DNA of 64,000 bases from Psammoneis japonica (lineage: Eukaryota), in the NCBI GenBank assembly GCA_008632985.1, contig QPGO01000035.1:173899-237898 (forward strand), written 5' to 3'. Positions 4,501 to 64,000 of this stretch are shown piece by piece. Position 1 is the stretch's first letter. Every line of letters begins with the position of its first letter. A program made the position numbers and the translations under genes. Under the pieces are notes generated by a model, which saw nothing but the letters and a program-made list of their open reading frames with translations, ran no database searches and was not told where the DNA came from.

Positions 4501-4660
4501 AGGCAGCAGGGGGGATGATGATGTCAAAAGAAATCATTTGCAAGGATGATGCAGTTGTTGTGGTCATCAGCTTTGGTCGCATTTGAAAAGCTCAGTGAAG
4601 GCTCATAACCTTTTGGTGAGTTGACAACACGGCGCATCGCGCAAGAATTCTGACACCAGC
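1600..4660. mobile_element. TpA-depleted degenerate repeat/TE relic, family not identified
   Basis: TA almost absent from ~1900-4600; six-frame ORFs are Cys/His-rich and nearly Tyr-free, the same signature as the identifiable TEs at 34-42 kb. Boundaries approximate. Confidence 0.55.
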
Positions 4661-4943
4661 CTCTTTATGTCTAGAGTAGAGCCTAGCTAGCTAGTAGCTA
4701 GTAGCCTGCGCAACGAGAACGCCGTCTGATCGCTGGTCGTGTGGATGGTGGCGGTTCAGTCATGGATTGTGATCCCACTCGGCGATTTCGTGTCATGTTG
4801 TCACAAGCGTGCTCATCTCACCACGAGACATCATCCTGGATCCGAACACACATGTCAACGATCCCGGCTTCTCACAAAAAAAACAAGTCAGCTCGTCACA
4901 ATCACACTCGTCAAAGAATCAATCCCAACAAGTAGGAATCAAC

Positions 4944-13709: not shown

Positions 13710-13791
13710 TTCGAATGGTCACGTGTTCGACTCACGTCTGGTGCTTGCCCGTCTGGCACTAGTAGCTCAGTGGTAGAGCGTTCGATTGCAG
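13710..13791 (+). tRNA. trnC-GCA: Circularly permuted tRNA-Cys(GCA): 3' half 13710-13745, 10-nt spacer, 5' half 13756-13791
   Basis: 5' half GCACTAG TA GCTC AGTGGTA GAGC G TTCGA TT GCA G; 3' half T TCGAA TGGTC ACGTG TTCGACT CACGT CTGGTGC T. Acceptor stem 7/7 (one G-U), D stem 4/4, anticodon stem 5/5, T stem 5/5, U73 discriminator; flanks form a BHB-like motif. Confidence 0.88.
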
Positions 13792-13799
13792 TGATGTTC

Positions 13800-13813
13800 T
13801 TTTTGATTTTTTT
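13800..13813 (+). terminator. Pol III oligo-T terminator of the permuted tRNA
   Basis: T5 at 13800-13804 and T7 at 13807-13813, just after the trailer. Confidence 0.65.
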
Positions 13814-13814
13814 G

Positions 13815-15710
13815 AATTCAACAGGCACAGTCTGCTGCGGTGGACTCGTCTCATGTTTCGCAGTCTTTCTGGAGTGCTGCACATCACAGCTGTAAGCAAC
13901 AGTGGCTTTTGTCAACCACTGTTTGAGCAGTGAGTGACAAGCTTCCACGATGTGCAACGAGTGCACCAACAAGCAACAACTTTGCTGGCTCTTGGTGTGT
14001 CAGCTGCATGATTTTTTGTGCACACTCATCTTTGATGTGCCAGCACACCACAAAAGCACATGCCCAACATGGCCTCCAACAAAGGAGAATCATTTTCTCA
14101 ATGAAAAACAAGCTCCTCCTCCTGGCGCAACAAGCACACGATGCCCCAGCTGCTTTCTCTTTTGCCTTGAGCTGACAAAAGCAGCGCCGCCGGATGTGTT
14201 CTCCTGGCCGCAGGTGGGGCTGATGTCACATCCATCAGAACACATCCAGCTCCACAGCAAAATTGTTGAGCAACAAACGTGTGGATGATTGCCAACAGAA
14301 AAAGAGGCAATTTTGCGACATGTGTTGGGTTCTCCAATGTGCCAAACACCTTGGCACTGACAAGACTCTGTTTCGTCTTGCCTGACCTGCAAAGCTCGAC
14401 GATGCAAGCTTTCGCTTTCGCTTCATCAGTGCGGATTTTTCTCATGAGCCAAAAAAGTCGAGATCGGCACTTTCAACGGCTGAGGTTGCAGCTGACCTCA
14501 CTTGCCGTTAAAAAACAACGGGCCGTTGGGAACGTGCCGATGCGCGCTGTGCGCACAGTCTTTGCCCAAAACTCCGTTGTGGAGAAAAAAGTGGGCGTCG
14601 TCTTCTCAGTTGACAGTCTGAGCCTGAAGGCAAGACCAGATGGCATGGACTGGCCCACTGTTGTTTGGTGATTGGGGTTTTGTGGCCCCTAAATTCAAAA
14701 AAACTCAAATGAGCACATTTTGTTTTTGGTTTGCCCAGGTGCATTCTTCGGCATCAAAGAATGCACCCAGCTTGCTTTTGTTCTCATGAGTGCAGAAAAC
14801 AGAAAGCCTTTTTGGCTTTGCAAAGCAAGGAGCATGAAACAAGCTGGCAGAAAATTGCACGCAGAAATGTGCGCGCGCATGACGTGCGGCACAATCCAAA
14901 AAACTCTTGGCACCACAATCAAGTTTGGGCGCAAGATCCCACATGGGCATTGCCATCAAAACTGTCACATTTTGCTTGGCACAAACAGGCACCTGTGGTT
15001 TCTCTCTTTTCCCCTCAGTTGGTGATTTCAAGTGAAAAGCTTTTGAACCCTCTTCTTGGGTCATTTCAACCCCCTGCTCTGAAACAGCCCTCAACACGTG
15101 AAGACAGTGCTGTGTTTGCCTGGGGCATGTGGGCATTGAAAGTGGACAGAGGAGAGGGCAATTCTTGCAAATGATGAACTTCAAGCATTTTGCTCATTGG
15201 CGGCGTGAACCAAGTTCTGTTGGCCATTGCCAGATGGGATGACGTGGGCGATGTGCCCCAGGCACACCCAGCACCCAGCATGAAAACATGCATGTGCACA
15301 GCTTGGGCCACACATTGAGCAAGATGACAAAAGAGCTGCCAGGTTTTTGTTGCTCAAGGGTTGGTTGAACAAGTTGCTTTTGATCTCTGGAGTGTGAGAA
15401 GTTTCAGCTGCTGGCCCGATTGGCTTGTGGAGATGTGGCATGTGGCTGGCATGTTTGTCAATTTTCTGGGTGACAGGTGTGGCTCCTGGGCAGCCTTTTT
15501 TTTAAGGGCAGCCTGCTGGTGGCAAAAGAGCTCGCCTCTGCCTCAGCAAGAAGTGCGTGATTGTGGTGTGCCAAATGATGCTGCGCTCCCAGCACCGTTT
15601 GCGTGCAACACTTTGTGTTGCATTGCTTCCAAAACATGCTGAGGTTGGAGCATGGAAAAAGTGGTGTCATGCACACCCGCACGATGGGAAGGACCACACC
15701 TCCACCTTGT
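13815..15710. mobile_element. TpA-depleted degenerate repeat/TE relic, family not identified
   Basis: Only a handful of TA in ~1.9 kb; Tyr-free Cys/His-rich ORFs in all frames; TA returns abruptly at ~15715. Confidence 0.55.
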
Positions 15711-16195
15711 TTGTTAGAACAATTAGAGGGTCTAGGGCTATGGTGTTGGAAGGGCTTGATCTTCCATCTCGTCGCGGGTTCGCACGTGCAAACTCACTGC
15801 GCGCGCGGTTCGATCGGTCACTTTCGGAGAAATTCTTTCCCGACGTCAGAAAATCTGCTACCGTCCTAAATTTACGGTATTACGAGACATTACACATTGC
15901 CCACCGAAGAAAGAAACACCGAGAAACCTACTCAAGACATATCAATTTGTGGTGCGCACTTAAGAGTCAATGACCCTTAAGTCATTAATTAGTGTGGGTC
16001 ACCAATCAGAAATGCGGAATTCGTGAATGAGCTGTTTTCTCACGTAGATTTCTACGTACGTCGTATAGTGAATTCACTATCGATATTCTGTACATCAGAA
16101 CAGCGATGGCGAAATGAGCGAAATTTCTTGTCGCTGCCAGAAAGTGACAGCAACAAAACAAGCCAACGCATTTCCCTTTCTGCAACACAGACGCG

Positions 16196-28451: not shown

Positions 28452-31400
28452 ATGAAGTAAGAGCATTCGCGTCGTCTTGCATTCCTTTGTTGGCTTAGTT
28501 TCTAACATCAGTTCTGTTTGTGTGTGTTTTCATTGCAGACTTGGCAAGTCTGCCCGAAAGCTTTTCTGCGGTTGTGGTCCCAACGCGGATCCCTCGGCTG
28601 TCTCTGGAAGCAACAACAACAACAAAGGCGGAAGCAAGAGCAAGACACGTTCCGCCAATGAGCCTGCGGTAGCTAGTACTGCTTCTGAACTAAAGAAGAC
28701 TGAGTTGATCCAAGAAAAGTCTGTGCAGAAAATCCGCAAGACGGACGAAAAGGCCATGAAAGAGATCGCCGCCATCTACAGCGAACGAGGTGTATCCATG
28801 AAGCCATTCGAGCAGTCCACTTCAAGGCCGAAAACCGCTACCACGTCCATCAACGAGTCGTCCACGAAAGCGACAAGCACAGCCGCTACCATGAATAGGC
28901 CGAGAAGTAGTGTGTCTGTCGGTGTTGCTGCAGGATCTGCCACTGTCGTCGGTGCCTCCATTGCCGCCACGGCAGCTGGACTCTCGACCGAAGATGTGGA
29001 AAAGATAAAGGCAATTGAGGACAAGGCTATTGTTGACATTGATCAAGCTGCTGAAAACGCGAATGAAAGTGTATCTAATGTGTACCACAAGAGACATGTG
29101 GAACCCGAAAAGCCTCCGGAGTCGGAAGTTGCTACAATGGCAGCTGCAGCGGGACTTAGTGTTGCTGCACAGAGCAAAGTTGAAGCGGTCAACCAGAGAG
29201 GAGTGGAACAGATGGAAGTAGTTGATGCTAAAGCAGTCAATGATATCGACTCAATCTACAAAAGAAAAGGCGTGACTATGGACAAGTCACCCAAGGAAAT
29301 CAAGGTTGGAAACCTCACTAGTTCTCTCGCCTTCATTGGAGCTGCCGCGGCTGCGGCGAGTGCTGGTATGGGGTCTAAGGACGTTGCCCTTATCCATGAT
29401 ATCGAGAACAACGCCACCAAGAATGTCGAGCGCATCGATGCGAAAATCGGTGATGACATCGCCAAGATCTACGAATCTGAAGGCAAGTGGTACGACACGT
29501 CCGATGGCTCTCGCGGTGCAGCGGTCGCTGCGGCAGCTGGGCTCAGCAATACCGCCGTCAAGAATATTGCCAATGTGGAAGAAAAGGCTGTAAAGAAAAT
29601 CCGTAAGACAGATGAAAAGGCTATGAAGGAGATTGCTGTTATCTATAGCAAGCAAGGTGTGCCTATGCAGTCCACGACAAAGCCGAAAACCGCTACGTCG
29701 TCTATCAACGAGTCGTCCACGAAAACGACAAGAAACACCTCTTCCATGAATAAACCGAGAAACAGTGTGTCTGTGAATGCTGCTGCAGGATCTGCCACGG
29801 TTGTCGGGGCCTCCATTGCCGCAACGGCAGCTGGACTCTCGCCAAAAGCCGTGGAAAAGATAAAGACGATTGAGGATAAGGCCATTGACGACATTGACCA
29901 TACCGCTGACAAGGCCATTGAAAGTGTATCCAAGGTGTATTACAGGAGTCATGTAGAAATCCCAAACCATCCCGATTCGGAAGTTGCTACAATGGCAGCT
30001 GCAGCGGGTCTTAGTGCGGCTGCACAGAGCAAGATTGGAGCTGTCAATCAGAGAGGAGTGGAGCGAATGAAAGCTGTCGATGCTCAAGCAATCAAGAATA
30101 TTGACTTGATCTATGAAGAGAAAGGTATGGCTATGGACAAGTCACCCAAGCAGACCAAGTTTGGAAACCTCACGGCTTCTCTTGCTGTCCCGGGGGCTGC
30201 TGCGGCTGCTGCGAGTGCTGGTATGGGGTCTATGGACCTTGCCCTTGTCCACGATATCGAGAACAACGCCACAAAGAATATCGAGAGCATCGATGCAAAA
30301 GCCGGTGATGATATCGCCAAGATCTATGAATCTGAAGGCAAGTGGTACGACACGTCCGATGGCTCCAGCGGCGCTGCGGTCGCTGCGGCTGCTATGAGAC
30401 CCAGGCCTTAAGTAACTTGAAACTGGCATGGCAGGCGCGCTCCGGATGAGCGTACAGACCATCACCGCGGTGACAACACGGAGAACTTGTCAAAAAACCG
30501 CCGGAGCCGACGATGACATTGACGCGGTAGATAAGGTGTCTAAACATTCGTCGTTTCTTGGGCCATTACAACAGAAGCTCTATTAGACCCTCATCGATAT
30601 ACCGTTGTAATCATCCATTCGGAGAACGGCGGCGAGTCGAGTTTTATGCAAACATGCCGTTGCACCCGTTCGTGACGCCATGTTGCATGCAGACGACGCA
30701 TCAACTCACCATTTGCCGGATTTTCGGCACCCACTGAGTTAAAGTCCGAGTTTATTAAAAGGCAAGTAAGTTGAAAATCAAAATGGTGTTATCCATGTAT
30801 CCGAGGCTCACCACTTGTTGTCTCACTCAACTTTCTTGTCGCCGCAGCCAATTCTCACTGTCTTACCTAGCATGAGCACACATCGACGAATCCAACGTCG
30901 TCGTCACATCGTCAAGCCCATTTGATCAATGGTATTGACCAGACGATTATTTTTGAAGACTTTGATAAAGCAACTGTAATGCATTCAGCCAAGTGTTCTT
31001 GAATGGGAGAGAGTCGGGCGGATGAGAGTGAAAATGAAGAATGAAGTTGGCGTACGGTTCAAGAAAAAAGCAGTCAAACATGGTTGACAAAAAATTCTGA
31101 TGCTGTTATTCTATAGAATGATAAATAATAGTGAATAGAGCTTCTCCCTGGCTTGTATATACTCTAGATTGATCGCAAAGACACAAATGTCAAATAATAG
31201 AAAAGTGCGGCTTGTAAATGAGTATTCGTGGATTGCTTCACCCATTTATAGCGTGAAAGAGGTCAGATATAGTTGTCACGAGGTCAAAGACAAATTAGAA
31301 AGTAGAACATTGCCATAAAATCGGTTTGTGATGATGTTATCATCTAATCTCGGTGTCGAGAACGAGTCACTTTCACCTCATCGTACAGCGAGTCACGTGT

Positions 31401-33779
31401 TTTCAATCCCGTATGACCCATTCGACTCAAAATTTTGGTAAAATTAGCTAGACTTTGACCCCAGCTAGAGCCACAAATTACACAAGATATGAGCATTATC
31501 AGTCTCATACTCTTTAAACAGATGCCTTGCGAGAATGTAATAGGTATGTATTGTTTGTGGTATCTGGTATTTCAAAATAGAACTAACTTTTCGTGGAGCA
31601 CCTTTATTACACGGGCAAGTGCGAGAGTCAACATTCAGTGATTGGTTAGTAACTAACGTTCACCCCCATTCTAGGCCCCCAAAACTGTCGTGAACTACGT
31701 ATCTGAATATTGTTAGTCGATCGAGGTGGGTATTTGGTTAAAAACGGGGGGTTAATTTTTACACGTGGCATCACGAAGCTGGGACGGAAAGCTGCTGGGC
31801 TCAGCATTGCCGCCGTCAAGAATATTGCAAGTGTGGAAGAAAAGGCTGTCGAGAAAATCAGCAAGACAGATGAAAAGGCTATGGGGGAGATTGCTGCTAT
31901 CTATAGCGAGCAAGGTTTGTCTATGAAACAAGTCGACCATTCCATAACAAAGGCCACAAGCGCCACCGCGCCAGTCGGCAAGTCGTCCAAGAAAGCGACA
32001 AGCACCACCGCTTCCGTGAATAGGCCGAGAAGCAGTGTGTCTGTCGGTGCTGCTGCAGGATCTGCCACGGTGGTCGGTGCTTCCATTGCCGCCATGGCCG
32101 CTGGACTCTCGCCTAAAGATGTGGAAAAAATAAAGGCGGTTGAGAACAACGCCACCAAGAGTATCGAGAGCATCGATGCGAAAGCCGGTGATGACATCGC
32201 CAAGATCTACGAGTCTGAAGGCAAGTGGTACGACACGTCCGATGGCTCCAGCGCTGCTGCAAGCGCTGCGGCTGCTGGGCTAAGCATTGCCGCCGTCAAG
32301 AATATTGCCAGTGCGGAAGAGAAGGCTGTCGAGAAAATCCGCAAGACAGATAAAAAGGCCATGGGAGAGATTGCTACTATCTACAGTGAGCAAGGGGTGT
32401 CTTTGAAACCAGTCGAGCAGTCCAAAACAAAGCCGACAAGCGCCACCAAGTCCGTCGGCGAGTCGTCAATTAAAGCGACAAGCATCACCACAACTTTCAC
32501 AAAGCCATCAAGCAATGCGTCTGTTGTTGCTGCGGCAGGATCTGCCACGGTGATCGGTGCCTCTATTGCTGCCACGGCGGCCGGACTATCACCTAAAGAT
32601 GTTGAAAAAACAAAGGCGATTGAGGACAGAGCCATTGTTGACATAGACCGTATCGCTGACACTGTCAATGAAAGTGCGTTGAAGGCCTACCAGAAGGAGC
32701 AGGTGGAACCCAAAAAGCCTCCGGCGTCGGAAGTCACCACCACAGCAGCTTTAGCGGGACTTAGTGTTGCTGCACAGAGCAAGATTGGAGCAGTAAATCA
32801 AAGAGGAGTGGGGCGAATGGAAGCGGTCGACTCTCAAGCAGTCAAGGATATCGATTCAATCTACAAAGAAAACGGCTTGGCTATGGAGAAATCGCACAAG
32901 CAGACCAAGGCTGGAAACCTCACTGCTTCTCTTGCCGTCACTGGCGCTGCTGCGGCTGCGGCGAGTGCGGGTATGGGGTCTATGGACCTTGCCCTTGTCC
33001 GTGATATCGAGAACAACGCCACCAAGAGCATCGAGAGCATCGATGCAAAAGCCGGTGACGACATCGCCAAGATTTACGAGTCTGAAGGCAAGTGGTATGA
33101 GAAGCCCGGTGGCTCCAACGCCGCTGCAGTCGCTGCGGCTACTGGGCTCAGCATTGCCGCTGTCAAGAAAATTGCAAGTGCAGAAGACGAGGCGAAATGC
33201 AATATGGATGCAACTGACCGAGAGGCTGCCAACACGGTGACCGAGGCTGACGAGGCACACACTGCTCAAATGCACAAGTACGCAAAGGAGGGGCGCTCGG
33301 AAGAATTCATCGACGGCGAGGAGAAGAGAGCCTCAGACAAGTATGACTTGATTGAGAGTGAGGCAAACGAAAACATTGCCAAGTTGATCGATAGTGCTGC
33401 CAACAGCATTGATGAAATATACGCGAAGGAAGGTAAAACGCGTACGAGGTCCAGTAACGGAGCTTTCACAGAACGAGGAAAGGCCGGCGCCATACTTACA
33501 GCTGATGCCATTGCTGCAGCCACCCGCGGAGCTGAGGATCGCAAACAGATGATGTTTGCCAACAAAAATCGTACTTGTCCCGAAGAAGAATACAAGAGCG
33601 ACAACAACCCGCTCAGCTCCATCGGCAACGGAGTTCATCTTGCTGTTTACGACGTTGGTGCCGGAGTGGCTTGGGCAGGGAAGTCAATAACGGGAGCCGA
33701 CTTTGAAGGTCCGCCGGAGTATGACGCTCGCGCTGACTACACCCCTGAGCAGAGAGCCATGTGCTGCCCCGCTCCGTGA
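28452..33779 (+). CDS. Large Ala-rich hierarchical tandem-repeat protein, interrupted by an insertion at 30394-31790 (likely disrupted allele)
   Basis: Exon 1 ATGAA (28452-28456), intron GTAAGA..CTAAC..TGCAG to 28538, giving MKLGKSARKLFCGCG. ~290-aa units repeat on both sides of the insertion; removing it plus one GCTGCT restores GAAVAAAAGLSIAAVKNI in frame. Confidence 0.75.
30394..31790. mobile_element. 1397-bp non-coding insertion with 6-bp target-site duplication GCTGCT
   Basis: GCTGCT at 30388-30393 and 31791-31796; the insert is AT-rich with no long ORF; only CCCAG/CTGGG near the ends as a possible TIR core. Confidence 0.7.
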
Positions 33780-33945
33780 GTCACGTGTTTTGTGTCGATC
33801 AGTAACACTCTTTTAGGATGTGTGATAGCATGTTGTAAGGAAGTAGAGTTTTAACATATATAATCAAGCTGCAACTCTTCTGATAACATCCACCGCAAAG
33901 TACCTCTACTCTCAATCATCTGCAGTGCGCCGCCCTAGGATCTAT

Positions 33946-34097
33946 TTCACAATTGAACATGTCTTCTGACGTCGCTCATCTGATGATGTGGACGATGATT
34001 CAGATCTTTTCTCTACACAAGTTCCGGAAGATCGATGAGCACTCTAAACATAAAGCTCACTTTTTTCATCTATTGAATAACGTTACGCTAGCTTAGT
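33946..34097 (+). repeat. Left copy of a 152-bp direct repeat (LTR or LTR fragment)
   Basis: Aligns without gaps to 38168-38319; differences are almost all transitions. Confidence 0.88.
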
Positions 34098-37000
34098 GCA
34101 CAGTGAATTCACTTCACGCGTTTTTTTTTTCACGATGACTTCCAACGATGCTGCGACACCCTCCTTCGAGCTCACCGGACAATGGGGAACCCCGAAATGC
34201 TTCAAGGGGCTCACTGCGAAGTTTGAAGTTCAAGATGTCCCCGATGACATCCACAGTGGAATGCACGAGAAGAAAGTGACATCTTTCAGCAGTGAGTGTG
34301 GTGATGACAACCCTCGTTTTCATGTGATTTCTTTTGAGACAGGTGAAGGAGGTCTTTGACCACAAGCCCTGTGAAGCAGGCCCATCCAAGTTCAGCGTCT
34401 TCTCCACTTGCCTCATCGGCACAGCAAAGACCAATTGGGAGTGAGCGTGACAGGAATTTGAAGTTGCGGCACTGGAGACTGAGGATGTGTTCCAAGCCGT
34501 CCTTGAGACGTTCACAAGACACATTGCTTCAAGAGCGACATGCCTCGACATGACCAGATCGAACATCTGAAGACCGTCAAGAAACTGTCCGGAGCAACTC
34601 ACAAACAGTTTGTCTTGGCAACAGACGGCATGACAACTGACCTTCAGCAGTTTCCACTGGACGTTGATGATGAAGGTGAAACGCTGGACAATCATCCCAC
34701 CTTGTTGGACCACGACTGCATCAACATGCTCATCAAGAGTGCACCACAAGCTTGGTGTGATGAGCTCACGGCAAACAGCATGAACCCTCACAACCTCACC
34801 AAAAAGGACTTGGAAGAGCAATTCCACTGCATGGAGAAAGTGGAGAAGTGCAAGGAGAGATGCCACAAGCGCTCCAATGACCATCGTCACGGAAGCGACG
34901 ACCATGACAAAAAGAAGAACGATCACAAGATGTCTTGCAAGGGAATGTCTGGATGCAAGATTCCCTGGAAACCCAAGTGCTGCAACTTTTGCAAGAAGTC
35001 CGGACACAACAACAAAGAGTGCAGTCACCCGGGACATCCGCGTCACAAGAAAGCATCCTTCAAACATGATGACCGAGACAAAACCGACCGCCACGATGGG
35101 GATTGGAATGACCGTTGCTGCAAGCGCCACTGTCGCATCTCTGACAAGGAATTGGAGCAATCATGCTGCTCCTCGAGTGATGAATCCTTGGACTGCAATG
35201 ACAGACGAGCACGCAAGATCTGCCGTTCCGAGAAACAAAATGGAGAATGTGAACCCAGTGGCAAACAATCTGATGACTGCTGGCTCAACTGCTTGCAAGA
35301 CAAAATAGATCACACAAAAGCGGAGCGTGGGAACTCCGCAATCACGAGAAATTTCTTGTGTCCGATCAGGCCGATTGGCACCAAAATCACAAAGAAGAAA
35401 CACAAAACAGCAGTGCTGGCTGCAACAGTGCCACCAGAAGACATGACACAGTCACCAGATCAAGCACTCTGTCGTTGCCAGATTCTGGAAGCTCTGCTTC
35501 CCTGATGCACAAATCTCAAGCACCCCAGAGATTTTGGCAGAAAGTCAAATCTGCCAGCTTCAATGCAAAAACCGGTGAGTTCACATGCTGTCATAGAATG
35601 GCATGTGATGTTGCTCTGCCAGAACTGTCAACATCAAAGACCTTTAGATGGTCTTTTTGTTGTGTCGATGAGACAGAGGGCAAGACTCATGGCTTGATTC
35701 TTGGAAGTGACTGTCTCAAGGAACTCAAGATCAACTTGTTGTGTTCATCCAAAACCATTCAGTGGGGCAACTCATGGGCTCCAATGCAAAGCCATGATGA
35801 AATGAAGCCTGGTTCAGAAGCTGAAGAAGCATTCTGGTGGATGCAATCAGATGAACATGACATCCACGCAAGCAAAATTTTAAAAGATGCAGCTTCGCAC
35901 GCGACCAAAATCTCAGACGCCAAGTGCGAGAAAGCAGATCTCAACAAGACAGTCAACGAGTGTTCCACACTCGATGGAAAACAAAAGAAAAAATTGCTCA
36001 AAGTGTTGAAGAGCCATGAAACACTCTTCGATGGCATGTCAGGCAACTTCGACAGCAAACCAGCCAACCTGCACATCAAACTGGGCAAAGACGTGCCGTT
36101 TCATGCAAAATGAGCATTCAGCATGCCGCAAATCCACAAGGACACACTGGCAAAAGAGATTCAAAGATTGGTCTCTGTGGAAGTCTCACAATGAAATGAC
36201 AGCAGCAGGCATGCATGCCCTGCTTTCATCACACCCAAGCAAAACAAAACTGTCCACTTTGTTTCTGATTTCAGAAAATCAAACGCGAGATTAAGGCGTG
36301 AACCATGTCTGCCACCAACCATGCAAGAGCTGTTGCAAAACCTGCAAGGGTTTAAGTGTGCTGCTTCTTTGGACCTGAATGTGGGTCACTGCACTGTCAG
36401 GCTCATGCCTCAAGCACAAGAGATGTGTGCACTGTCATTGCCCCATGGGGGAAATTCAGCTGCCAACGCCTGCCAATGGGAGTGGCGCCGGCGTCAGACA
36501 TTTTTCAACTCAAAATGATGCAACTTGTGAAAGGACTAGAGGATTTTGTTGGCACTTGCCTCAACAACCTCCTTCCAACAGGCCAGGGCCCCTTTGATGA
36601 GCACCTTGAGCAACTCAAAACGGTCTTGGATGAGCTGCAACGCGCCGGGCTCAAAGTCAACGATGCAAAATCAAAATTCTTTGCTGCTGAGATTGAACAT
36701 CTTGGTTTCTGGCTCACTGGGGAAGGAATGAAACCTGTGGGCAAAAATGCAAAAGCAACAGATGAGATGAAATGACCAGAAACACAAAAACAACTCCGCT
36801 GTTTCATTGGCACGGTCAATTTTTACCACGACATGTGGTGATCACGATCACACTTGCTCGCACCACTCTCAGAATTAATGTCTCCAGCAAGAAAAGGAAA
36901 AAGCTGAATTGGCTCCCAACACATGAGAGAGCATTTCAAGCTGCAAAAGAGGCACTGAGGCAAGACGTGATGCTCGCGCACCCCGACTTCTCCAAAAAAT

Positions 37001-38167
37001 TTGCTGTCCACGTCGATGCGAGTGATTTTCAACTTGGCGCCATCACATCCCAAGAGGGCAAACCAATTGCTTTTTGCAGCAGGAAGCTTGACAAAGCCCA
37101 AAGAAACTGTGCCACTGCAGAGAGAGAACTTCTCTCTCCATTGCAGAGTGCCTGCAAGAGCACAGAAACATCTTGTTGGGCCACGAAATTGAAATTTTTA
37201 CAGATCATGTCAACCTTGTTGCTTGCAAAACGGCATCGTCAGCACGTGTGCATTGCTGGCACCTGTTTGCAGAAGAGTTCAGACCCACCTTGATGTTTGT
37301 CAAGGGAGAGGAAAACGTTGCAGCCAATGCACCAAGCCGGCTTGACAAACAGATTCTGACTAAGACAGTCGAAGGCCTTGACAGCAGCACGCACCCAAAA
37401 CAATCAAAATCAAAGCGGCCGGAGCAAATTGTGCAATCCGAGCAGCTCTTTGTCCAAACCCAAACTCGAAAGAAAAGAAAGCTTGCTGAAAATGCTGGGG
37501 CCCTTGCAGAAGAGGCTCTGCCGCAATCCCAGCCAGCCTGCAAATGCAGGTGCCTGGAGAAAAAAGAGGAGACAGCTCCCACTGATGGCTTGCCCATCAG
37601 TCACAAGACAATCACGAAACACCAATGGAAAGACACAAAAACATGTGAGAAGCTAGAAACAGATGGCAACTGCATGGTCAGATAGACAGGCAAAAACAAC
37701 GTCACATCTTTTGCAATGGCAATCAAATGCCCATGCCGTGACCGCTCTGAAAACCAATCGTGGATTGGCGCCACATCAATCTCTGTCATCCTGGTGCAGA
37801 TCGAACAGAAGAAACAACACGACAAAGCTTTGCATGGGAAAAATTGCGCAGAGACGTGAGAGACCAAGTGACACATTGTGACAAGTGTCAATGGCTCAAA
37901 AAGCACACCAAAAAATGTGGCCATCTTCCTGCCAAAGCAGCAGAATGTCATCCGTGGCGCAAATTGTGTGTGTGGACCTCATCGGACCTTGCAAAGTGCA
38001 GACCGCTGATGGCAAAATTCACAAACTCCAAGCCCCATCACTGTGATGGATCCAGCCTCATCCTGGTTCGAGATCAAAGCAATGCCAGATGCTGCGAGCC
38101 AGACGGCAGCACTGACAGTCGACCAAGAATGGCTTTGCCGCTGCCCCCCACCCCAGGATCTGTGTGG

Positions 38168-38319
38168 TTCACAGTTGAGCACATCTTCTGATGTTGCTCA
38201 TCTGATGATGTGGACGATGATTCAGACCCATTCTCTGCACAAGTTCCGGAAGATCGATGAGTGCTCTAAACACAAAGCTCACTTTTTTCATCTGTCGAAT
38301 GACACCACGCTGGCTCAGT
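38168..38319 (+). repeat. Right copy of the 152-bp direct repeat
   Basis: See left copy; 7 of the 8 TA dinucleotides of the left copy are TG or CA here. Confidence 0.88.
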
Positions 38320-38344
38320 CCATCATCTCTCTCTGCCATGGATT

Positions 38345-41300
38345 GTGTTGGTGGAGAGGGTCATTCCCACTTAGATGCAGCACATCTGTGCTGTGCACTG
38401 TGCACTCACATGGAATCAGCACTGGAGCCCACAGAGCACACCACAGACTGAAGCACACATCACGCGAGGTCGTGGGCAGTCATGGTGTTGATCGCACCCA
38501 CTCACACTTCTGGTCGTAGAAAAACTGCGGAGGCGCTTCCGCTCACCAGAATTGAGAGTCGCTCCCCGAAACACAAACGAGTGAAGCACGGCGTGACACT
38601 GCTGCAGACAATGATGAACAACGCCATGCATTTCTGTGCATTGGCACGTTCCATCCTCTTGCAGTTTTGCAATGTCGAGTGCAGGCTTGTGATTGACACC
38701 TTTGTTGCACGTCCTGAACTTTGACAGGGGCCCAGAATTCTCTTGCAAAAAACAATCAACCTTGCCATTGCAGCAGTCGTCAAGGCACTGTGCGACCCCA
38801 GTGGCTTGACATGCAAAGCTTTTGATGGGATCTTCAAAGCTGATCTTTCACGTCCTGGCACGCATCTGCAAATGCCTGAACCTTGGTGGCAGCATCCTTG
38901 GTGGATTTAAATTCAGATTGGCAGTCGCGATTTACAGCACAATGGTGTCACTGCTCGGCTTGGCTTTTTTGGCATTCTTTTCACCTTGAGCTGGGTCAGC
39001 AGCAGCTCGCTTCTCCCCTGTGCTGTTGGAATTGGTGAGCACCTCAACACTTGTTGCAGACTGTGCAGCACGCACTCTTTCTGCAGCCAACTTGTCATGC
39101 ACTCGCGTTGCCATCTCGGCCTTGCTAGATCCCAGCTCACGAATCAAGAATTGTTTCATTTCTTCTTCATTGGACAAGTCTGGAGTGCATGATGTGGCTT
39201 TCGTGTGCAGTTGCTTGACTGTCAACAAGTTGCTCTGCTGCACACCAAGCACTTCCAATGACGCACCAATCAGCAAGCTTTGGCAGAGGCTTTCTGCACC
39301 TGGCTGAGTCTGCCATGATGGATGCAAATGAAGAAAGATGTTTCATGTGGATGGGTTCCCATTCACCAACATGGTGAGTGTCCTTGTCCTTTTCCCTGTC
39401 AACTAGAGCCTTCAATGTGCCACTGTCAGAAAGGCAAGTTGCGGCACTTGAAATGTGCTTGTGATGCGCGCTCAGCAAAATGTTCGCTTCTGCCATCTCA
39501 CCCAGCCACCCTCAGTCACGCGCAGAGCCCCATTTGGCAAATGCGAAGCCAGTCCTTCAAAGAATGTGTGTTCCAATGATTTCTGTTGACATCTTGTCAA
39601 TGTCCCTTCCCAGAATGGTTTCACAAGCAAACTTGAAAAAATCCAAGAGCGAGTCGCATGGAAAATTTTCGTCGTGATGTTCCTTGTTAAGCTCCAACTC
39701 GTCTCCAGTGGGAAACAACTTGCCCGACTTGATGCCAGAACAATGCATCCAAATGAGAATGGCAACAGTTCCTGAGAATTCAGGACATTCTTCATCGTCC
39801 CAAACCATGAAATGAAGATCCTTGTTGTCACGCTTGCCACGGATTTTGGTGCAGAGACCCTTGACGGCATTCTCCGACACTTGGAAGCACTCGGTGACAA
39901 ACTTCTCAACCGTCATCTCCAAAACCTCTTCGCAGTGTAGAAATGACTTTGTGCCAACAATGATGACAGTCCAAAGCATTCGATGATGCTTGTCATCATG
40001 TGACAAACAGCCCGGCAAGAATGCAAAAGCACTTCCAGCTTCGTGGCAGTTCGATGCACAGTCTTGCCATTGGTCAATTGCAGCCTTGAAATCTTCATGT
40101 TTGGTGGCATTTCCACGACGCCAGAAATGAGGATCACCAGGGTGTTTGTGGCATCCAGCACCCTTTTGGGCTTCCTCCTCGCCAATCTCATGACAATCAG
40201 CACACATTTCTTGGCATTCGCCATTGGTCGTTTCGCAGTGCTTGTGCACGTGAAGCTTGCTCATGGCAGTGCGGAAGAGCCCAGTGGAAGAGTGACCTTT
40301 CCAATCACCAATGCAGGTGATGGGGTTTCCATGCCAGTCCTTTGCTGGAGCGTTTGTGCGGTTGTGAAGCAGTGGTTTGGCCTTTTGTTTTGTCCTGAAC
40401 TGAGTGAACTGGATTGCTGCATCCAAATTCAAAGGAAAAGGATCTGATGGACACAAGTCACGTGCCAGCAACATGGCACTTTCAGAGTCACCAATGAGGT
40501 GACAGAAGTCACGAAAAAGCCTCCATGTGGGTTCACACCGTGCAATGGAACTGGTCGCAATGGTGTCAGTGCCTGCTTTGCCGGTCTTTTTGTTCTTTCC
40601 TGTGATTGCAAGTTTTGGTGACGTTGTGTCCAGCTTGCACTTCATCAGCGTCTTGTTCAAGCTCGACTCACCAAGAGAGTGGGTTTGCTGCGTCATGTTG
40701 AATCCGCCGCCCTTCAAAATGACATAAGATGCCATCGTCGAGTGTGTGTTTTCTCTCTCGCGAACAAGAAATGCAAGTTTGGGTTGATTTTCTTGTGGTG
40801 CACCCCTCGAGTTTTCGAATGACCCTTTGGACAAAGCTGCTCAGGGATGAAAGAAAGTCAAAATTTACTTGTCAGTGCACCGCTGTGCACTGGAAATCAT
40901 GCCAGTGCACTTGAAGTGCACCGACCCCTTCAACCAAGCACACGTCACTGTCTCAAAACATTGCCCCCCCTCTGGTGCCTGCAGATGCAGGGATCTCTAT
41001 CAGGTTGTGAGCCTCGCCTTCGCTCAGCATGAGGAGGGGCCACACCACATCGCGAAACAACAAAACACCTTCAGCACGTTGTTGTCGACACCGGCGGTGA
41101 GCATTTTCAACGCAAACACCTTCGCTCTGTCGACGCGAATGGCATGTTCATTGTCATTCATCTTGTCGCTTTCGTTGGTGTCATCAGCCGACGTTTCGCA
41201 TGTGGCGTGGCATGCGCACTCTGCTTGCGCAGCGATCCTCTCCTGCTGCACATTGTGCACTGGGAGTGTGGGTCAGCTTGTTGCCGGAGTTGCAGGGTAG

Positions 41301-42458
41301 AAGCGCGGCAGCACTTAAAATGCAGACATTGGGTTTTGCACTTGCGCAGCAATCCTGCGTGAGGTGTGCCATCAAAGATCCAATGTCAACTGCTCCGTGC
41401 GCCGTTGATTTCTTTGAGCGCAACGAAACATCATGATGGCCCCCGCGAATGGCACCTGTTTGAAGACGGCATCATTTTGGCAAGAAAAATTGTCGTTGAT
41501 GTGGGCCGCTCTGTCCCAGGCACCAGCTCAAGATGGCAATTCGCCGATTGCGACTGCAACTGACACCCCACATGGACCCTCAGCTGTCTCTGCTCCATCC
41601 GCCGAGTTTGCTGCTGCACGCGATGCGACTCGCCCTGTCATTGAGTTGCATCCAACAGCGACAACTCCATCCACTGCAACCACCCCACCAGTTGACCCTT
41701 GTTCTTTTTCTGCAAATGTCAAGACTGACCCATTGGCCATTTTTAAGATTGCTTTGGGCAAACTTGGCAAGCCAATTGAGCACAAGAAAGCTGGTGTTGC
41801 TGTTGACCGAGCAACAATGGCGTGCATTGTGAACAAGGTGATTGGTTCAATCAAAATGCTCATCAATGCATTGCATGGCACAAGCTTCTGTCTGTGTGCT
41901 GCAAGCTGATGGCTTCTCTGCACACCGCGAGAAAGAGGCAAATGAATCTGTTGTCTTTTCTGAGAAGTCAATTGACTCGGATTCTCCTCACCCCAACCCT
42001 GCCAATGTTGCAAGCCTCCCGGGTTGCACCACTTGGAGTCATTGTCAGTTGTTGCCTTGGCTGATCCCTGGTGACTTGCTGCTGCCAAATTGGCACTGCT
42101 CCGGTCGCCCACCTGATTTCCTCTTGGATTGGACCAGGTCTGGACGGCCTCCCGACAGTGCACTCTGGTGTCATCCCGGCAGACCTCCCAGTTTGCCATG
42201 TCATTCATGCTCAGAGCAATCTCCCAGTCTGTTAATTGTTGGCGATTCAATGGATTGGTTTAACGAGTGGACGATTGCATGGTGTCGGGCGCAGAAACGG
42301 ATGCACTGTTTCCACTTTGCTGTCTGTCTGTCTGACAGTCATGACTCTCACCACTTCTCTTTTGCACTGGCAGATCTTCAATCCTGTTTTTACCAGGCTT
42401 TTGATTCTCCTAGTGTGGGGGGGTGTTAGTGGAGAGGGTCATTCCTACTTAGACACAG
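38345..42458 (-). mobile_element. Degenerate tyrosine-recombinase (Crypton-like) element bounded by 36-bp direct repeats
   Basis: Repeats 38345-38380 and 42423-42458 match at 32/36. The minus-strand ORF relic ~39170-40830 shows YR motifs: FLHCEE (L-R..E), KIRGKRD, IGTHIL*RTG (H-x-x-R), SAHHK and ATCLSD (catalytic Tyr position). Confidence 0.72.
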
Positions 42459-46628: not shown

Positions 46629-48185
46629 TCTGTATTAAAAGTTTGTTAAAGTTGATGACTCCTGGCGGGCGAGCCGGGCGGGTTCCGGTCGAGCTTTCGT
46701 CAGCTCATCGTCGGTTGGTCTGCCCCCATGGGGACATCCTGTCCTCGATCCATCCTCCATCGATGCTGGTGGAAAACATGGCTGCCACTCTGCTAGAGAG
46801 AGCACAGTGTCCCAGCTCATGTGGGCAGTGCAAGATAAAACATCAACAATCTGCACCAAAGAGGAGCACACACAGCAGCACCAGCAGGGGGTGGGCGCGG
46901 CAAACCTGCCCAGGGGTTCACAGCCGGCGCTGCTGTGCGTGTGGTTTGGCCCAGGAGTGTGCAAACAAACAAACAAGGCACAGCAACACAAGAACAAGAA
47001 GCTGCAAGTGCTCTGAGGCACAAAAGGCCCTCATTGCTGCTGTGCTGGCGGCTGGCGGCCGGCAGTTGATTTTGTGGCTGCACAGGTGCTTGCATGGCGA
47101 GCAATGAGCACCAGCCACAATGGCATGCTGACCCAGGTTTTCCACCTTCCAAGAAGAGAAAAAAGTCTTTGGAGGCTGTGGCAGCACAGCCTGCATGTTT
47201 CCTCAAGAGAGATTGTGGCTTTGTGGTGCACGTGGTGCAGCGCTTTTTTCAATGTCGCCCCCAGCGTTGATGGCTCCCACTCCAACACGGCGGGAGAACT
47301 TCACAAAGTTTGCTGCTGGCAGAGTTTAGAACTGCTGATGCAGTGTCAACCAGGCAGCAAATGTGCCATGGCTCTTGGCTCTTTCCCTCAGCTTCAAGTG
47401 GCACTTTGCCCTCTTCTTTCTTGCTGGCGGAAGTTCGCGTTTGGGAGCTTGATCTTTTGGCTCACACAGCTCTCTTTTTTCTTGTTGCCAAGCTGGTTTG
47501 CAGGTCTTTCTGGCTGGAAAGGGACCCAGGATGAGGCGCCAAAGTCAGGAGTGCAGAGTGCAGCAGCAGCTCCTTTGGGTGGTGCAAGATTGCTGACCAG
47601 CAAGGGGATCTCTTCTTGTGGCAAGCGCGAGGCACACTTTGTCCCCACTTGTCCGCTCTGAATCTGGGGCAGCCACTTCTTGCATGCAGAAAGATGTTCA
47701 GTTGAGTGTGGACAGAAAGATCATGATGCAGTGTCTCACTGCAAAAAGCCTTCACACACAAAAGCAACAAATGCATCGCACTCCTTTCTCAGGTCACTGG
47801 CTGACTTGTGTCAAAACATGCTCTGCAAATGAACCGACAGCACACCATCAGCAGTTCGCTTGCCTTGCATTGTTCACCGAAGTGTTGCAAGCATCTGTCA
47901 CAAGCATGAGAGCATCACTCAGTGCTCACAAGCAGCGGAAAGGCGTGCCGCGTGCCAGTCATCCATGGCACAAACAGCCTTTTGTCCTGAAGTGGCCAAG
48001 TTGGATCGTTTCAACGAAAAACTGAGATCTTCAGCGATTTCGCTTGTCGAGTGTCGCATCACCCCGATATTTTGGGGGGCTTGGGTCTTAAATTTAAGAA
48101 CAGGCAAAACTGTATGTAAAAGTGTGACTTTTAATTGGAAAAAGCTAGAAACCATGCACACTCGAGAGTGAGCTCTATAAACTAG
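46629..48185 (+). mobile_element. Candidate non-autonomous Helitron, TpA-depleted interior
   Basis: A|TCTGTATTAAAA at 46628/46629; imperfect 18-nt hairpin GCACACTCGAGAGTGAGC at 48156-48173, then CTAG|T at 48182-48186; interior nearly TA-free. Confidence 0.55.
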
Positions 48186-61252: not shown

Positions 61253-62089
61253 TAGAAGTGATCCCTGGCAAACGGAACGAGGGAGCGAGGTAAGGTTGTC
61301 AGAGTCTTGCATTATTGGTTGTAGTGATTCATTACTGAACTCTTTGATGCTGTAATCTAGGACTCTGTAGGGGTCGTCAACGTTCGACATGGTGTCATGG
61401 ATGCCGACAGCGGGTCTCGAGCAATGCACGAATGTGCCGCGATATTGGGTCTAAAGCTTGCGAATGATAGATCGGAGAACACACTGGTTTTAACGGATAT
61501 GCCGAAGGGAGTCAATAACAGGAGGAATTGTTGTTGATCTTTGCAGAGTTTGGCGAAATCGAAGGTGCTGCCGTCGTAGGAAATGGTCGCGGTTTTCGTA
61601 AGTTATCGAATTAGACTCGCTTGCTCCCTCTCGACGTCATTGAGCTAACGCTGTTTGTTCGCTTTCTTAACAGGACTGGTTCGTTTCAAGTCAATCACAG
61701 ATGCAGAGAATGCCATATATCCCACGCACGTACATAAATTAGAGCCAGGGGGGTGGCGATTCATCAGAGTGTGCGCTTTGGGCGCCGGCCTTAGTTTCGC
61801 TTGTATGAACACTGAAGAATAATCCAACACGGCTTGAAATGATATTGATAGACTATCACAAGTTAGGACCTACGGCTCGAGCACTGCGACAAGCTTCTTT
61901 TCCGCTTCAGTCTTCTGCTTCTTGGTGGCAATTAGTGCCTGCTCTTGCTCAGCGAGCTTACGTTTCGTCCGCTGAATTTCCACTTCCTTGTATTCAACTT
62001 CACGATTAGCTTGCGCCACTGCCCGTTCAGCTCTTCCCTTCTCGTTGCACGTCTTTTCATGTTCGGCAGCACAGAAAAAAAAATCCCCC

Positions 62090-64000
62090 TGAGGTTGCTT
62101 GGCAAGTTTTGGCTGTTGAGTCCAACCCGTCATGGACGTTCTGTCTTGTTCAGACCTTTGCAGGAAACTCATGGCAGGTTTGTTGAGGACCTTTTTGGCA
62201 TGCTGGCACCCTCAAGAGTTTTGGGCTTGGCTTTGACCTGCGGGCAACTCTGTCACCACATTTCATGATACAGTGACCTTGCTGTGCGTTTGATTGGAGC
62301 AGCAAGCTGCCTTTTCCCACAAGAACACTCTGGCAATGACAAAGGCTCAGCACAATGTGAAGATGTCTGCAGAACATGGAAGCTCCAGTCATCACATTGT
62401 TCATGCACAAGTCTGCCTTGGATGTTTTTCAATGCATCCTTTCAAGGGGACACTCTGGAGAATTGTCAGTGCCTGTCTTCAACACAGAAGAAAGTGCTCT
62501 GTCTGGCACTTGGATGACAGAGTTTTGGGTGTGTCTTGGTGCATCTTGAGAGGATCATTTGAGGTCCAGGATTTAGTCATGTTTTTTGGTTCATCAGATG
62601 ACCATGGACTCTCACATTCTTTGACTCAGTCAAGGCACTTGCAGATTTGCTGAATTTCAAGCAACAATTTGCATCATTCAATGATTGTTGCATCATTGAT
62701 CTTAAGACTGAAAGTCACTTCAGTGGCGCCAAGGCTTGGGAAGTTGTGGCAGCCTCTGTCAAAAGGAAATTTGAAGACATGCATGATGCGCACTCACCAA
62801 TCCAGGATGAGCAGGGTGCAGACAAGTTTGTTGTGGTTTGGGATTTGCTGAAGAGAGCCATGAAGTTGTGAAGAGAATGTTTGTTGCATGATTCAAAAAC
62901 CACCCTTCTGTCAACTGTGCACAGTTCTCCAGAAGATTGCAAGCACAAGTCCTGCAAGCATTCGAGCTTGGTTGGCAGCATTGAGAAAATGGCAAACTCC
63001 AGCCATGTGGCATTGATCAATAAAATCAAGTCTCATGTGTTCACTTCAGAGTGCCAGACAAAGTGAGCCTGTCATGGAGGCATCTCCAGCAAATGCTGGC
63101 TGCAAGCTCCCTTCCTCCACCTTCTTGCCTCACAAGCAGTCAGCAGAAACATCCTCTTTTTGCACACATTTCTGTGTGCAAGAAGCAGATGTTGCACATT
63201 TGGTGGGCCCTCTTGGCACATTCAATGAGCCAAAGGTCTGTGTCACATCTGGCTCATCTTGGATGTGGAGCACAGCTGTGCATCAAGTTGGGGCTGCAGC
63301 CTTGGTTTGTTGGTTCCCAGCAAGACTTTGGAAGAAAAAAAAAGGAACCGCGTCATCAGAGACACATCTCTGTCAATCTGAAGGGGGGGGGGGGGGCAAC
63401 TCTCTCAGCCATCAGTGCTTGGCTGAGTTTCACCTTGTTTTTGGCTCTGAGTGATGGTGCCTGTTTGATTGCTGATCTCCCTCACAACACTTTGGCCTCT
63501 TTCCCTGCCACCCTGCAGGTCTCTGTCTGACCATTGCTCCAGTTGAGGTTGTGCACTGACATTTTGCACTCTCTTGACACCACTTCCCAGCTCTGGAGGC
63601 ATCGCTTTCCCTGCCAAAAGCTGAAAAGCCCTGCTGTTTGTAAAGTGCCTTTGTCTTGCACGTGGGTCAAGGTGGCTTGACAGCTCAGCTTGGCGGAGTT
63701 GGGCACCCCTTGCATCCTCCCAACTCCTTCCTCAACCCTGCTGCTCCCCCACTTTTTGGTGCTCACCATCCCCAACCTGAGCACATGGCACCCTGTTGGG
63801 ACAGCTGGCATGAGCACCCATTTCCGTGGCCTTTTCCACCACTGTGGAATGTGCCTGAGTGGACTCCCTCCATCCGTTTTGCTTCAAAGAGCATCGGCAG
63901 CAAGAAACTTGGCCACTTGGGAACAAAGTCAAGCTCCAGATCTTCCACCTGGCTGGCAGGGCTTGAAGAGGCTGGTTGGAAGAGTGGAGAGAGCAAGAGC
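62090..64000. mobile_element. TpA-depleted degenerate repeat/TE relic running off the window end
   Basis: Near-absence of TA; broken plus-strand coding relic around 62650-62950 (KAWEVVAASVKRKFEDM...FKNHPSV); family not identified. Confidence 0.55.

Follow-up and report, generated by a model that had tools for sequence, protein, structure and literature searches.

We analysed a window of 64,000 nucleotides from Psammoneis japonica (contig QPGO01000035.1 of assembly GCA_008632985.1, positions 173,899 to 237,898 of the forward strand), in which two direct repeats, at 33921-34100 and 38136-38322, are by all sequence signs the long terminal repeats (LTRs) of a decayed Ty3/gypsy retrotransposon. 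Most TA dinucleotides of the left LTR are read as TG or CA in the right LTR. It is the right LTR that has changed, the left LTR being essentially untouched, and this one-sidedness was absent from an earlier interpretation of the repeat pair (hereafter the original prediction). The right LTR is part of a long tract depleted of TA. Taken as a whole, the locus was probably subjected, after insertion of the element, to TpA to TpG/CpA hypermutation that acted by position over a bounded region, with the left LTR outside it.

Loss of TA from the right long terminal repeat

Aligned without gaps over 152 nucleotides (33946-34097 with 38168-38319), the two LTRs differ at 21 positions (86.2% identity), 20 of which are transitions and one a transversion. 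Eight TAs of the left copy fall within this alignment; the right copy reads TG at four of them, CA at three and TA at the remaining one, which stands in CTAA, and no TA is private to the right copy. These counts agree with the original prediction, as do, exactly, the positions of two sites at which the copies differ as TG versus CA (33960-61/38182-83 and 34040-41/38262-63). A gap of 4 nucleotides lengthens the match to 33930-34100 / 38148-38322, and over the full LTRs, which are separated by 23 transitions and 4 transversions, nine of the ten left TAs are TG (five) or CA (four) in the right copy, the two outcomes being interspersed, compared with 0 of 1 in the reverse direction. Of the 15 transitions from A/T in the left copy to G/C in the right, seven lie within TA, a context that holds 16 of the 93 A/T bases (hypergeometric P = 0.0035). 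Furthermore, left CG is matched by right TG, TG and CA at 33970, 33973 and 34081, and a right CG by left TG at 34074. The window holds only these two copies of the repeat. For five diverged duplicates of host sequence, also from this window, the transition:transversion ratio is 0.8-1.8; about half of the TAs are retained, and change has gone in both directions.

The direction of the change was read from the proteins that the purged DNA once encoded. The element was aligned to 151 homologues and columns were taken where the homologues agree on a residue. At 17 conserved tyrosine columns (two of which, 36808 and 36811, may be duplicate alignments of the residues at 36821 and 36824) the element reads Tyr once, Cys five times, His four, Phe five, and Trp and Arg once each, while other conserved residues are mostly retained (His 7/7, Phe 14/17, Trp 7/9, Gly 16/19). 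In the remains of the neighbouring mobile-element gene, none of 13 tyrosine columns reads Tyr (Cys 8, His 2, Phe 2, Ser 1), as against complete retention of Trp (9/9), Pro (10/10) and Cys (8/8). Tyr has therefore given way to Cys or His at 9 of 17 columns in the element and 10 of 13 in its neighbour, which corresponds to TA becoming TG or CA since TAY codons turn into TGY or CAY; Thr or Met at 6 of 17 isoleucine columns likewise fits ATA changing to ACA or ATG. Arginine columns read His at three and Cys at one of 19, and decay of CpG was thus a second process in the tract.

Other copies of the family, compared across the contigs of one sample, are consistent with this direction. The comparison covers the best-supported 40 of 1054 differences and the best 15 of 208 pieces, among which the LTR is covered by two 30-letter loose ends and the LTR sites are themselves absent from the differences listed. 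Snippets of two other LTR copies have TA at 33936, 33943 and 34014, and A, A and T at 33952, 33957 and 34005, in each case like the left LTR. Over 38430-38655, another contig of the sample has 14 TAs and 22 CGs where the window has 1 and 15. The lost TAs of this segment have become CA 11 times and TG twice, a local strand bias, and the neighbouring gene's eight changes from Tyr to Cys and two to His are on the same strand as this bias.

The right LTR is accordingly the changed copy, because the tract purged of TA contains it, because Tyr codons read Cys or His there and because other copies keep TA. The outcome that the original prediction had named as fatal to it, a gain of TA by the left copy, is the opposite of what was found: TA is ancestral at the seven one-sided sites and was lost from the right copy.

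Extent, targeting and flanking preference of the purged tract

The ratio of observed to expected TA (o/e) is 0.05 in the interior of the element, 0.09 in the right LTR and 0.06 at 38323-42230; the left LTR, by comparison, has 0.67 and the left flank 0.89, and values elsewhere are about 0.5-0.7. For TG and CA the ratio is about 1.2 in the left LTR and 1.57-1.83 in the right LTR, with G+C contents of 42% and 50%, respectively. Within the tract G+C is 48-51%, the same as outside, and there is no A+T enrichment anywhere near. At the left edge the transition is abrupt. Five TAs lie in the last 30 nucleotides of the left LTR, the last at 34094, and the next TA follows at 35306, after 1212 nucleotides with none; at 34152-53 other copies have TA and the window has TG. 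This edge thus spans no more than about 60 bp, at the junction of LTR and interior, where TA and CG content shift together. The right edge lies between 42233 and 42391, so that past the retrotransposon the tract continues for 4 kb and takes in a further mobile element, whose gene lies on the minus strand. It covers two mobile elements, and the host-like DNA on either side has ordinary TA content.

As the original prediction held, the changes arose after insertion, in chromosomal DNA and on both strands: TG and CA outcomes stand at 4:3 in the ungapped alignment and 5:4 in the full LTRs, and the tract does not end with the element. Its case against RNA editing and reverse-transcriptase error is borne out as well, since edits made before integration would mark both LTRs and would not continue 4 kb beyond the element. 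Because the tract runs into a second mobile element, the change must have been made in chromosomal DNA and by position rather than homology. Targeting by position also follows from the different treatment of identical sequences 4 kb apart, and that treatment, together with the untouched state of nearby host tandem repeats (about 1 kb long, 80% alike and 1-5 kb distant), argues that homology is not the guide, unlike in repeat-induced point mutation (RIP).

Loss of TA depends on the flanking bases. Among the 28 TAs that survive in the focal tract, 16 are flanked as YTAR (Y, pyrimidine; R, purine), 12 are mixed and none is RTAY, whereas the 1603 TAs outside comprise 249 YTAR, 863 mixed and 491 RTAY (P = 7e-7 and 8e-5 against the focal survivors). 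Survivors are mostly YTAR (TTAA, CTAA, CTAG) or of the form TAGA/TAAR, and in 27 of 28 the TA is followed by two purines on one strand, which holds for 37% of TAs outside; ATAT, GTAC and ATAC are of the RTAY class. In four other purged tracts of the window, 35 survivors include 19 YTAR and 5 RTAY. The mutator thus has a flanking preference, YTAR being often kept and RTAY being erased completely in the focal tract, and the survival of CTAA alone in the right LTR is explained by the retention of YTAR.

Proposed mechanism and alternative explanations

In the course of events that we propose, a Ty3/gypsy element would have inserted with two identical LTRs and a TCATC target-site duplication (TSD). 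A later mutation process acting on the chromosome would have turned TpA into TpG or CpA, through A:T to G:C change at the A of either strand, over a sharply bounded region reaching from the inner end of the left LTR through the interior, the right LTR and a Crypton-like neighbour to near 42.3 kb, and methylated-CpG decay (CG to TG or CA) would have operated in the same region. The left LTR, lying outside, would have stayed near its insertion state, so that the pair could be compared as before and after. Targeting by position may reflect a domain of silenced chromatin or methylation. The premise that the LTRs were identical at the start, taken over from the original prediction, is reasonable for a multi-copy family with TG..CA ends and a TCATC duplication, with the sharp edge as its caveat. 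An enzyme with a sequence preference would fit the flank-dependent erasure, and the agent is most likely a DNA adenine deaminase of the ADAT/TadA kind, such as that proposed for the alga Bigelowiella natans. More tentatively, and with doubt slightly outweighing belief, we suggest that this alga, probably a diatom, has an enzymatic defence which rewrites TpA to TpG or CpA by position, within a silenced domain whose edge is tens of bases wide, and with the preference RTAY over mixed over YTAR.

Several observations weigh against this interpretation. Five A:T to G:C changes in the right LTR lie outside TpA (33952, 33957, 34005, 34083 and perhaps 34007), so that either the process is not strictly confined to TpA here or a second process is active. 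Flanking bases show no effect on the choice of strand at 22 sites, the edited A being followed by Y at 14 and R at 8, and the unedited A by Y at 12 and R at 10. A RIP-like process would likewise yield TAs that several copies have in common, and the copies alone give no direction. The edge at 34095-34152 is sharper than expected of a chromatin boundary and coincides with the end of the LTR, which fits renewal of the left LTR by recombination. Finally, the join at 34100 rests on the assembly and the TSD, no bridging contig of the exact copy being present among the differences and pieces listed.

The edge may therefore be read in more than one way. A silenced, methylated domain halted by the 3' end of the upstream gene remains a candidate, and so does a misjoining of two copies by the assembly at the repeat, against which the TSD speaks. 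It is unlikely, in our estimation, that purging first took in the whole element and that an unpurged LTR of the same family, for example a solo LTR, later replaced the left LTR through gene conversion or unequal recombination. In that case the sharp edge would be where homology with the donor ended, at 34100, and the pair would compare two family members, with the direction from TA to TG/CA still holding. Such an exchange would suit an edge of at most about 60 bp at which TA and CG change together, the many copies of the family (186 contigs, at a depth 4-8x that of the flank) and the poor alignment of the first 15-18 nucleotides of the right LTR with the left. Nevertheless, the other LTR copies differ from the left LTR by about 9% (7/81 and 3/35 letters), there is no near-identical donor in the best 15 of 208 pieces, and the TSD is intact; moreover, almost every difference can be put down to hypermutation or CpG change of the right LTR, which is what one would see with the left LTR still in its insertion state.

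The same direction and the same tract could also have been produced by another chemistry, in which the T of TpA is modified, for instance to 5-hydroxymethyluracil (5hmU) as a silencing mark, and mispairs with G to give T to C. As TA is self-complementary, T to C and A to G are indistinguishable from the sequence. In the available text of the studies concerned, 5hmU is enriched over dinoflagellate repeats, with old reports at TA and TC (PMC11071213), and an enzyme that makes it is tied to silencing of dinoflagellate transposable elements (PMC11572971). The first of these studies, however, found no sequence motif for 5hmU, and the off-target changes at ApA read as A to G, which an adenine enzyme fits slightly better; we regard thymine modification as rather improbable. 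Much less credible is a RIP-like change of C to T at CpA/TpG on the left LTR, by which the left copy would have gained its TAs and the right would be ancestral. The dinucleotides are those of fungal RIP as described in the text available (PMC2621366), and several copies share TA at the same sites. Yet TA, TG and CA are ordinary in the left LTR and it is the right LTR that is the outlier, continuous with 8 kb of Tyr to Cys/His change; an element with a TA o/e of 0.05 could not have been functional at the outset, A+T is not raised in the vicinity and the host repeats nearby are untouched. Least credible of all is that RNA or cDNA was altered ahead of integration, whether through ADAR-like editing, through errors of reverse transcriptase or through deamination of cDNA while single-stranded. 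TA depletion is as strong in the interior as in the right LTR, and A-to-G change with a preference for 5' U/T resembles ADAR, which favours U before the edited A according to the accessible text of a preprint (10.64898/2026.01.13.699255). The LTRs share a template, however, so that such changes would be shared, and nine of ten TAs differ; both strands are hit, and the tract proceeds past the element into a gene on the opposite strand.

Other candidates were ruled out altogether. Biased gene conversion is not specific to a dinucleotide, and G+C is unchanged. Co-transcriptional editing from the LTR promoter does not agree with a 5' LTR spared in full, a 3' LTR hit in full and effects on both strands. 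A family natively poor in TA is excluded by the Tyr codons and by the TA kept in other copies.

A separate question concerns the two sites at which the LTRs differ as TG versus CA. The original prediction derived both from one ancestral dinucleotide hit on opposite strands; the sites differ as it described, and their origin from TA is unproven. We lean slightly towards at least one of them not having come from TA, either through deamination of a CpG on opposite strands or through two steps in the right LTR. In the two-step variant, which is about as likely, TG (site 1) and CA (site 2) would have been present at insertion and the right LTR would have changed twice, for example from TG to CA with CG or TA as the intermediate. 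A CpG origin would be in keeping with the CpG decay active in the tract (CG o/e 0.55), with the CG differences between the LTRs and Arg to His/Cys changes noted above, and with the CG found in other copies where the window has CA or TG at 34656, 34706 and 34720; in addition, transposable elements of a model diatom are CG-methylated, as stated in the portion of that study available (PMC9998398). The only other copy seen at 33960-61 among the pieces listed is TG, like the left LTR, which also favours an origin other than TA. Host duplicates have 13 such reciprocal sites in 3654 aligned nucleotides, which predicts 0.64 in 180 nucleotides against the 2 observed (Poisson P about 0.14, an estimate); because this rate is comparable, the two sites alone are not beyond chance. 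Within 34149-34158 the window and three other copies differ as TG/CA, TG/TA and CA/TG, all in 10 nucleotides, and reciprocal differences are on this account common between copies of the family. A TA route also requires that the left LTR, untouched in other respects, lost TA at precisely these two sites. On the other side, the sites as TA would be ATAT and GTAC, both of the most susceptible RTAY class, which is absent among the ten TAs of the left LTR (P = 0.026), and roughly 0.5 sites would be expected through CpG and 0.3-0.6 through two steps, a loose fit to the 2 observed.

The element, its surroundings and known systems

A pair of direct repeats beginning with TG and ending with CA bounds the element, flanked by a 5-bp TSD as in LTR retrotransposons, and the Pol domains of the element follow the Ty3/gypsy order of protease (weak), reverse transcriptase (RT), RNase H and integrase (Table 1). 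Another genomic copy (X2) diverges directly after 34100, which confirms the 3' end of the left LTR; for the start of the right LTR, the coordinate may be off by a few bases. The family is multi-copy, with matches in 186 contigs of one sample at ≥80% likeness. Against a depth of 66 in the flank, the bin that starts at 33942 has about 390, and values across the family are 250-500. Homologue alignments span 35388-38136 of the element and end there, and nine open reading frames (ORFs) contain no Pfam match to the integrase catalytic core (rve). The depth of related contigs drops to 102 in bin 38046-38216, at the junction of integrase remnant and right LTR, between 506 and 254, and loss of the integrase core for this reason looks like a deletion specific to this dead copy. 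By eye, no tRNA-type primer binding site or clear polypurine tract was recognised in the element. A perfect 12-nucleotide palindrome around GAATTC lies at 34102-34113, directly after the left LTR and at the position expected of a primer binding site, and a run of ten Ts at 34121-34130 varies in length among copies (4 letters fewer in 4 contigs). Scans of public collections with LTR patterns (two patterns in metagenome contigs, one in viral contigs) gave 0 matches.

Table 1 Features of the window discussed in the text.
Feature	Position	Strand	Remarks
TSD, left	33916..33920		TCATC, directly before left LTR
Left (5') LTR	33921..34100	+	180 bp, TG..CA ends; unpurged, 10 TA (o/e 0.67), CG o/e 1.13
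Reciprocal site 1	33960..33961		TG; CA at 38182-83; TG in other genomic copy (X2 loose end at 33997)
Reciprocal site 2	34040..34041		CA; TG at 38262-63; no other copy seen at the site among the pieces listed
Left TA, right TG	34014, 34071, 34078, 34089		152-nt alignment
Left TA, right CA	34051, 34084, 34094		152-nt alignment
TA kept in both LTRs	34045/38267		in CTAA; 152-nt alignment
TA-purged tract	34095..42390		TA o/e 0.05-0.06; TG, CA o/e 1.4-1.9; CG o/e 0.55-0.58
Ty3/gypsy interior, decayed	34101..38135	+	several frameshifts; integrase catalytic core missing
Predicted gag with CCHC knuckle	ORF 34507-35505	+
Possible protease, weak match	about 35463-35738	+	RVP E 0.006, below cut-off
Predicted RT	about 36449-36712	+	RVT_1 E 1e-6 (ORF 36356-36775)
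Predicted RNase H	about 36910-37149	+	RT_RNaseH_2 E 1e-22; ORFs 36766-37293, 37092-37685 (RT_RNaseH_2, RT_RNaseH)
Predicted integrase zinc finger	about 37757-37900	+	Integrase_H2C2 E 7e-10 (ORF 37751-38191)
Right (3') LTR	38136..38322	+	187 bp; purged, 1 TA (o/e 0.09), CG o/e 0.52
TSD, right	38323..38327		TCATC, directly after right LTR
Remains of neighbouring mobile-element gene	38662..40711	-	about 720 aa; four homologues, E 4e-100 to 5e-78; purged
Upstream host-like open frame	31707..33779	+	690 aa, internally repeated; unpurged; no Pfam family; stop 141 bp before left LTR
Four further TA-purged tracts	1620-4671, 13761-15732, 46637-48112, 61960-63998		TA o/e 0.05-0.09

The neighbouring gene has a depth of 270-380, compared with 66 in the flank. 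No Pfam family was found for its four homologues, nor for ten ORFs of 38.4-42.3 kb and the minus-strand ORF 34114-35160. Look-alikes of its family in the Atlas carry NDC10_II, Phage_integrase, DUF3435 and DUF3504, which we take to be relatives of Crypton tyrosine recombinases, and clusters of these look-alikes are commonest in Bacillariophyta and Oomycota. As a lead, the neighbour may be a Crypton-like tyrosine recombinase element. Upstream of the retrotransposon, 28712-33193 comprises the host-like gene and its neighbour, with tandem repeats of about 0.3-1 kb that are 78-92% alike, have ordinary TA content and encode a protein rich in Ala, Ser, Lys and Glu without a Pfam family. Two of the four further tracts have very low CG o/e (0.19-0.26). 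None of the 24 longest ORFs of these four tracts has a Pfam family, and the tracts show no DNA similarity among themselves or to the focal tract.

The LTR pair amounts to a natural before-and-after experiment, in which the erasure of TpA followed integration, took place in DNA on both strands and was guided by position, not homology. The mechanism would accordingly be sought among those linked to a domain of chromatin or methylation, and the flanking preference offers a test of the enzyme and, if the proposed defence is real, could identify it. Dating by LTR divergence is invalid in such genomes, as the raw 14% seen here is nearly all hypermutation or CpG decay on one LTR. Moreover, purged DNA loses TAA and TAG, leaving TGA as the sole stop, and long false open frames arise on both strands that may mislead gene finders. 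Such frames are seen on both strands here, for example one of 348 aa antisense to gag (34114-35160, minus strand) without a Pfam match, and many lie within 38.4-42.4 kb.

Compared with Ty3/gypsy elements (Metaviridae), the focal element shares the gag knuckle, RT, RNase H and integrase zinc finger in order, short TG..CA LTRs and a 5-bp TSD, and differs in being dead, frameshifted and without the integrase core. RIP, a process of ascomycete fungi that resembles a genome defence, introduces dense transitions at CpA/TpG/TpA into mobile DNA, acts on duplicated sequence and, by C:G to T:A change at CpA, creates TpA and A+T-rich DNA. Here too mobile DNA is ruined by dense transitions at one set of dinucleotides, but TpA is destroyed and G+C is unchanged; duplication does not act as a trigger either, one of two identical LTRs being spared and host repeats of about 1 kb remaining unpurged. 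Decay of methylated CpG has left its changes of CG to TG/CA in the same tract, but loss of TpA and replacement of Tyr codons by Cys or His codons lie beyond what it can do; it is a second, co-located process. ADAR and APOBEC act before integration on RNA or single-stranded cDNA and are strand-specific, APOBEC giving G to A. With them the present case shares clustered, here presumably deaminase-driven, transitions in retroelements, but they would mark both LTRs alike, and the changes seen here are neither on one strand, nor identical between LTRs, nor confined to the transcript.

The closest parallel is that of the chlorarachniophyte alga B. natans, in which TpA-specific A:T to G:C hypermutation of integrated viral DNA has been measured in mutation-accumulation lines and an ADAT2-like DNA adenine deaminase proposed (Mettrop et al., 10.64898/2026.01.13.699255). 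As far as the available text of that preprint goes, the two cases are alike in that almost only A:T to G:C at TpA occurs, giving TpG or CpA by strand and leaving remains poor in TpA and rich in TpG/CpA, and in that the target is foreign DNA in the nuclear genome, Pfam domains of transposable-element type being enriched among the TpA-depleted genes of B. natans. At our locus this kind of change accounts for nine of ten LTR TAs and for the Tyr columns, with about five changes outside TpA. On the same reading of the source, the cases differ in lineage and in targets, which are a giant virus and a virophage there and an LTR retrotransposon and a Crypton-like element here, and in the co-occurrence here of CpG decay and of some changes outside TpA. 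The main text of the preprint does not contain the words flanking, context, LTR, retrotransposon or diatom (10.64898/2026.01.13.699255), so the flank rule, sharp edge and LTR asymmetry are not described in it, and our literature search found no published report of the TpA process in diatoms or retrotransposons, the single report being this 2026 preprint. What is new at our locus is the one-sided LTR pair, the very sharp edge of the tract and the flank rule; the TpA process itself is rare and, going by the preprint text available, was previously reported in one other alga. If the locus does reflect a positional enzymatic defence, the process described in B. natans would have a wide distribution over distantly related algae and would target transposons in addition to viruses.

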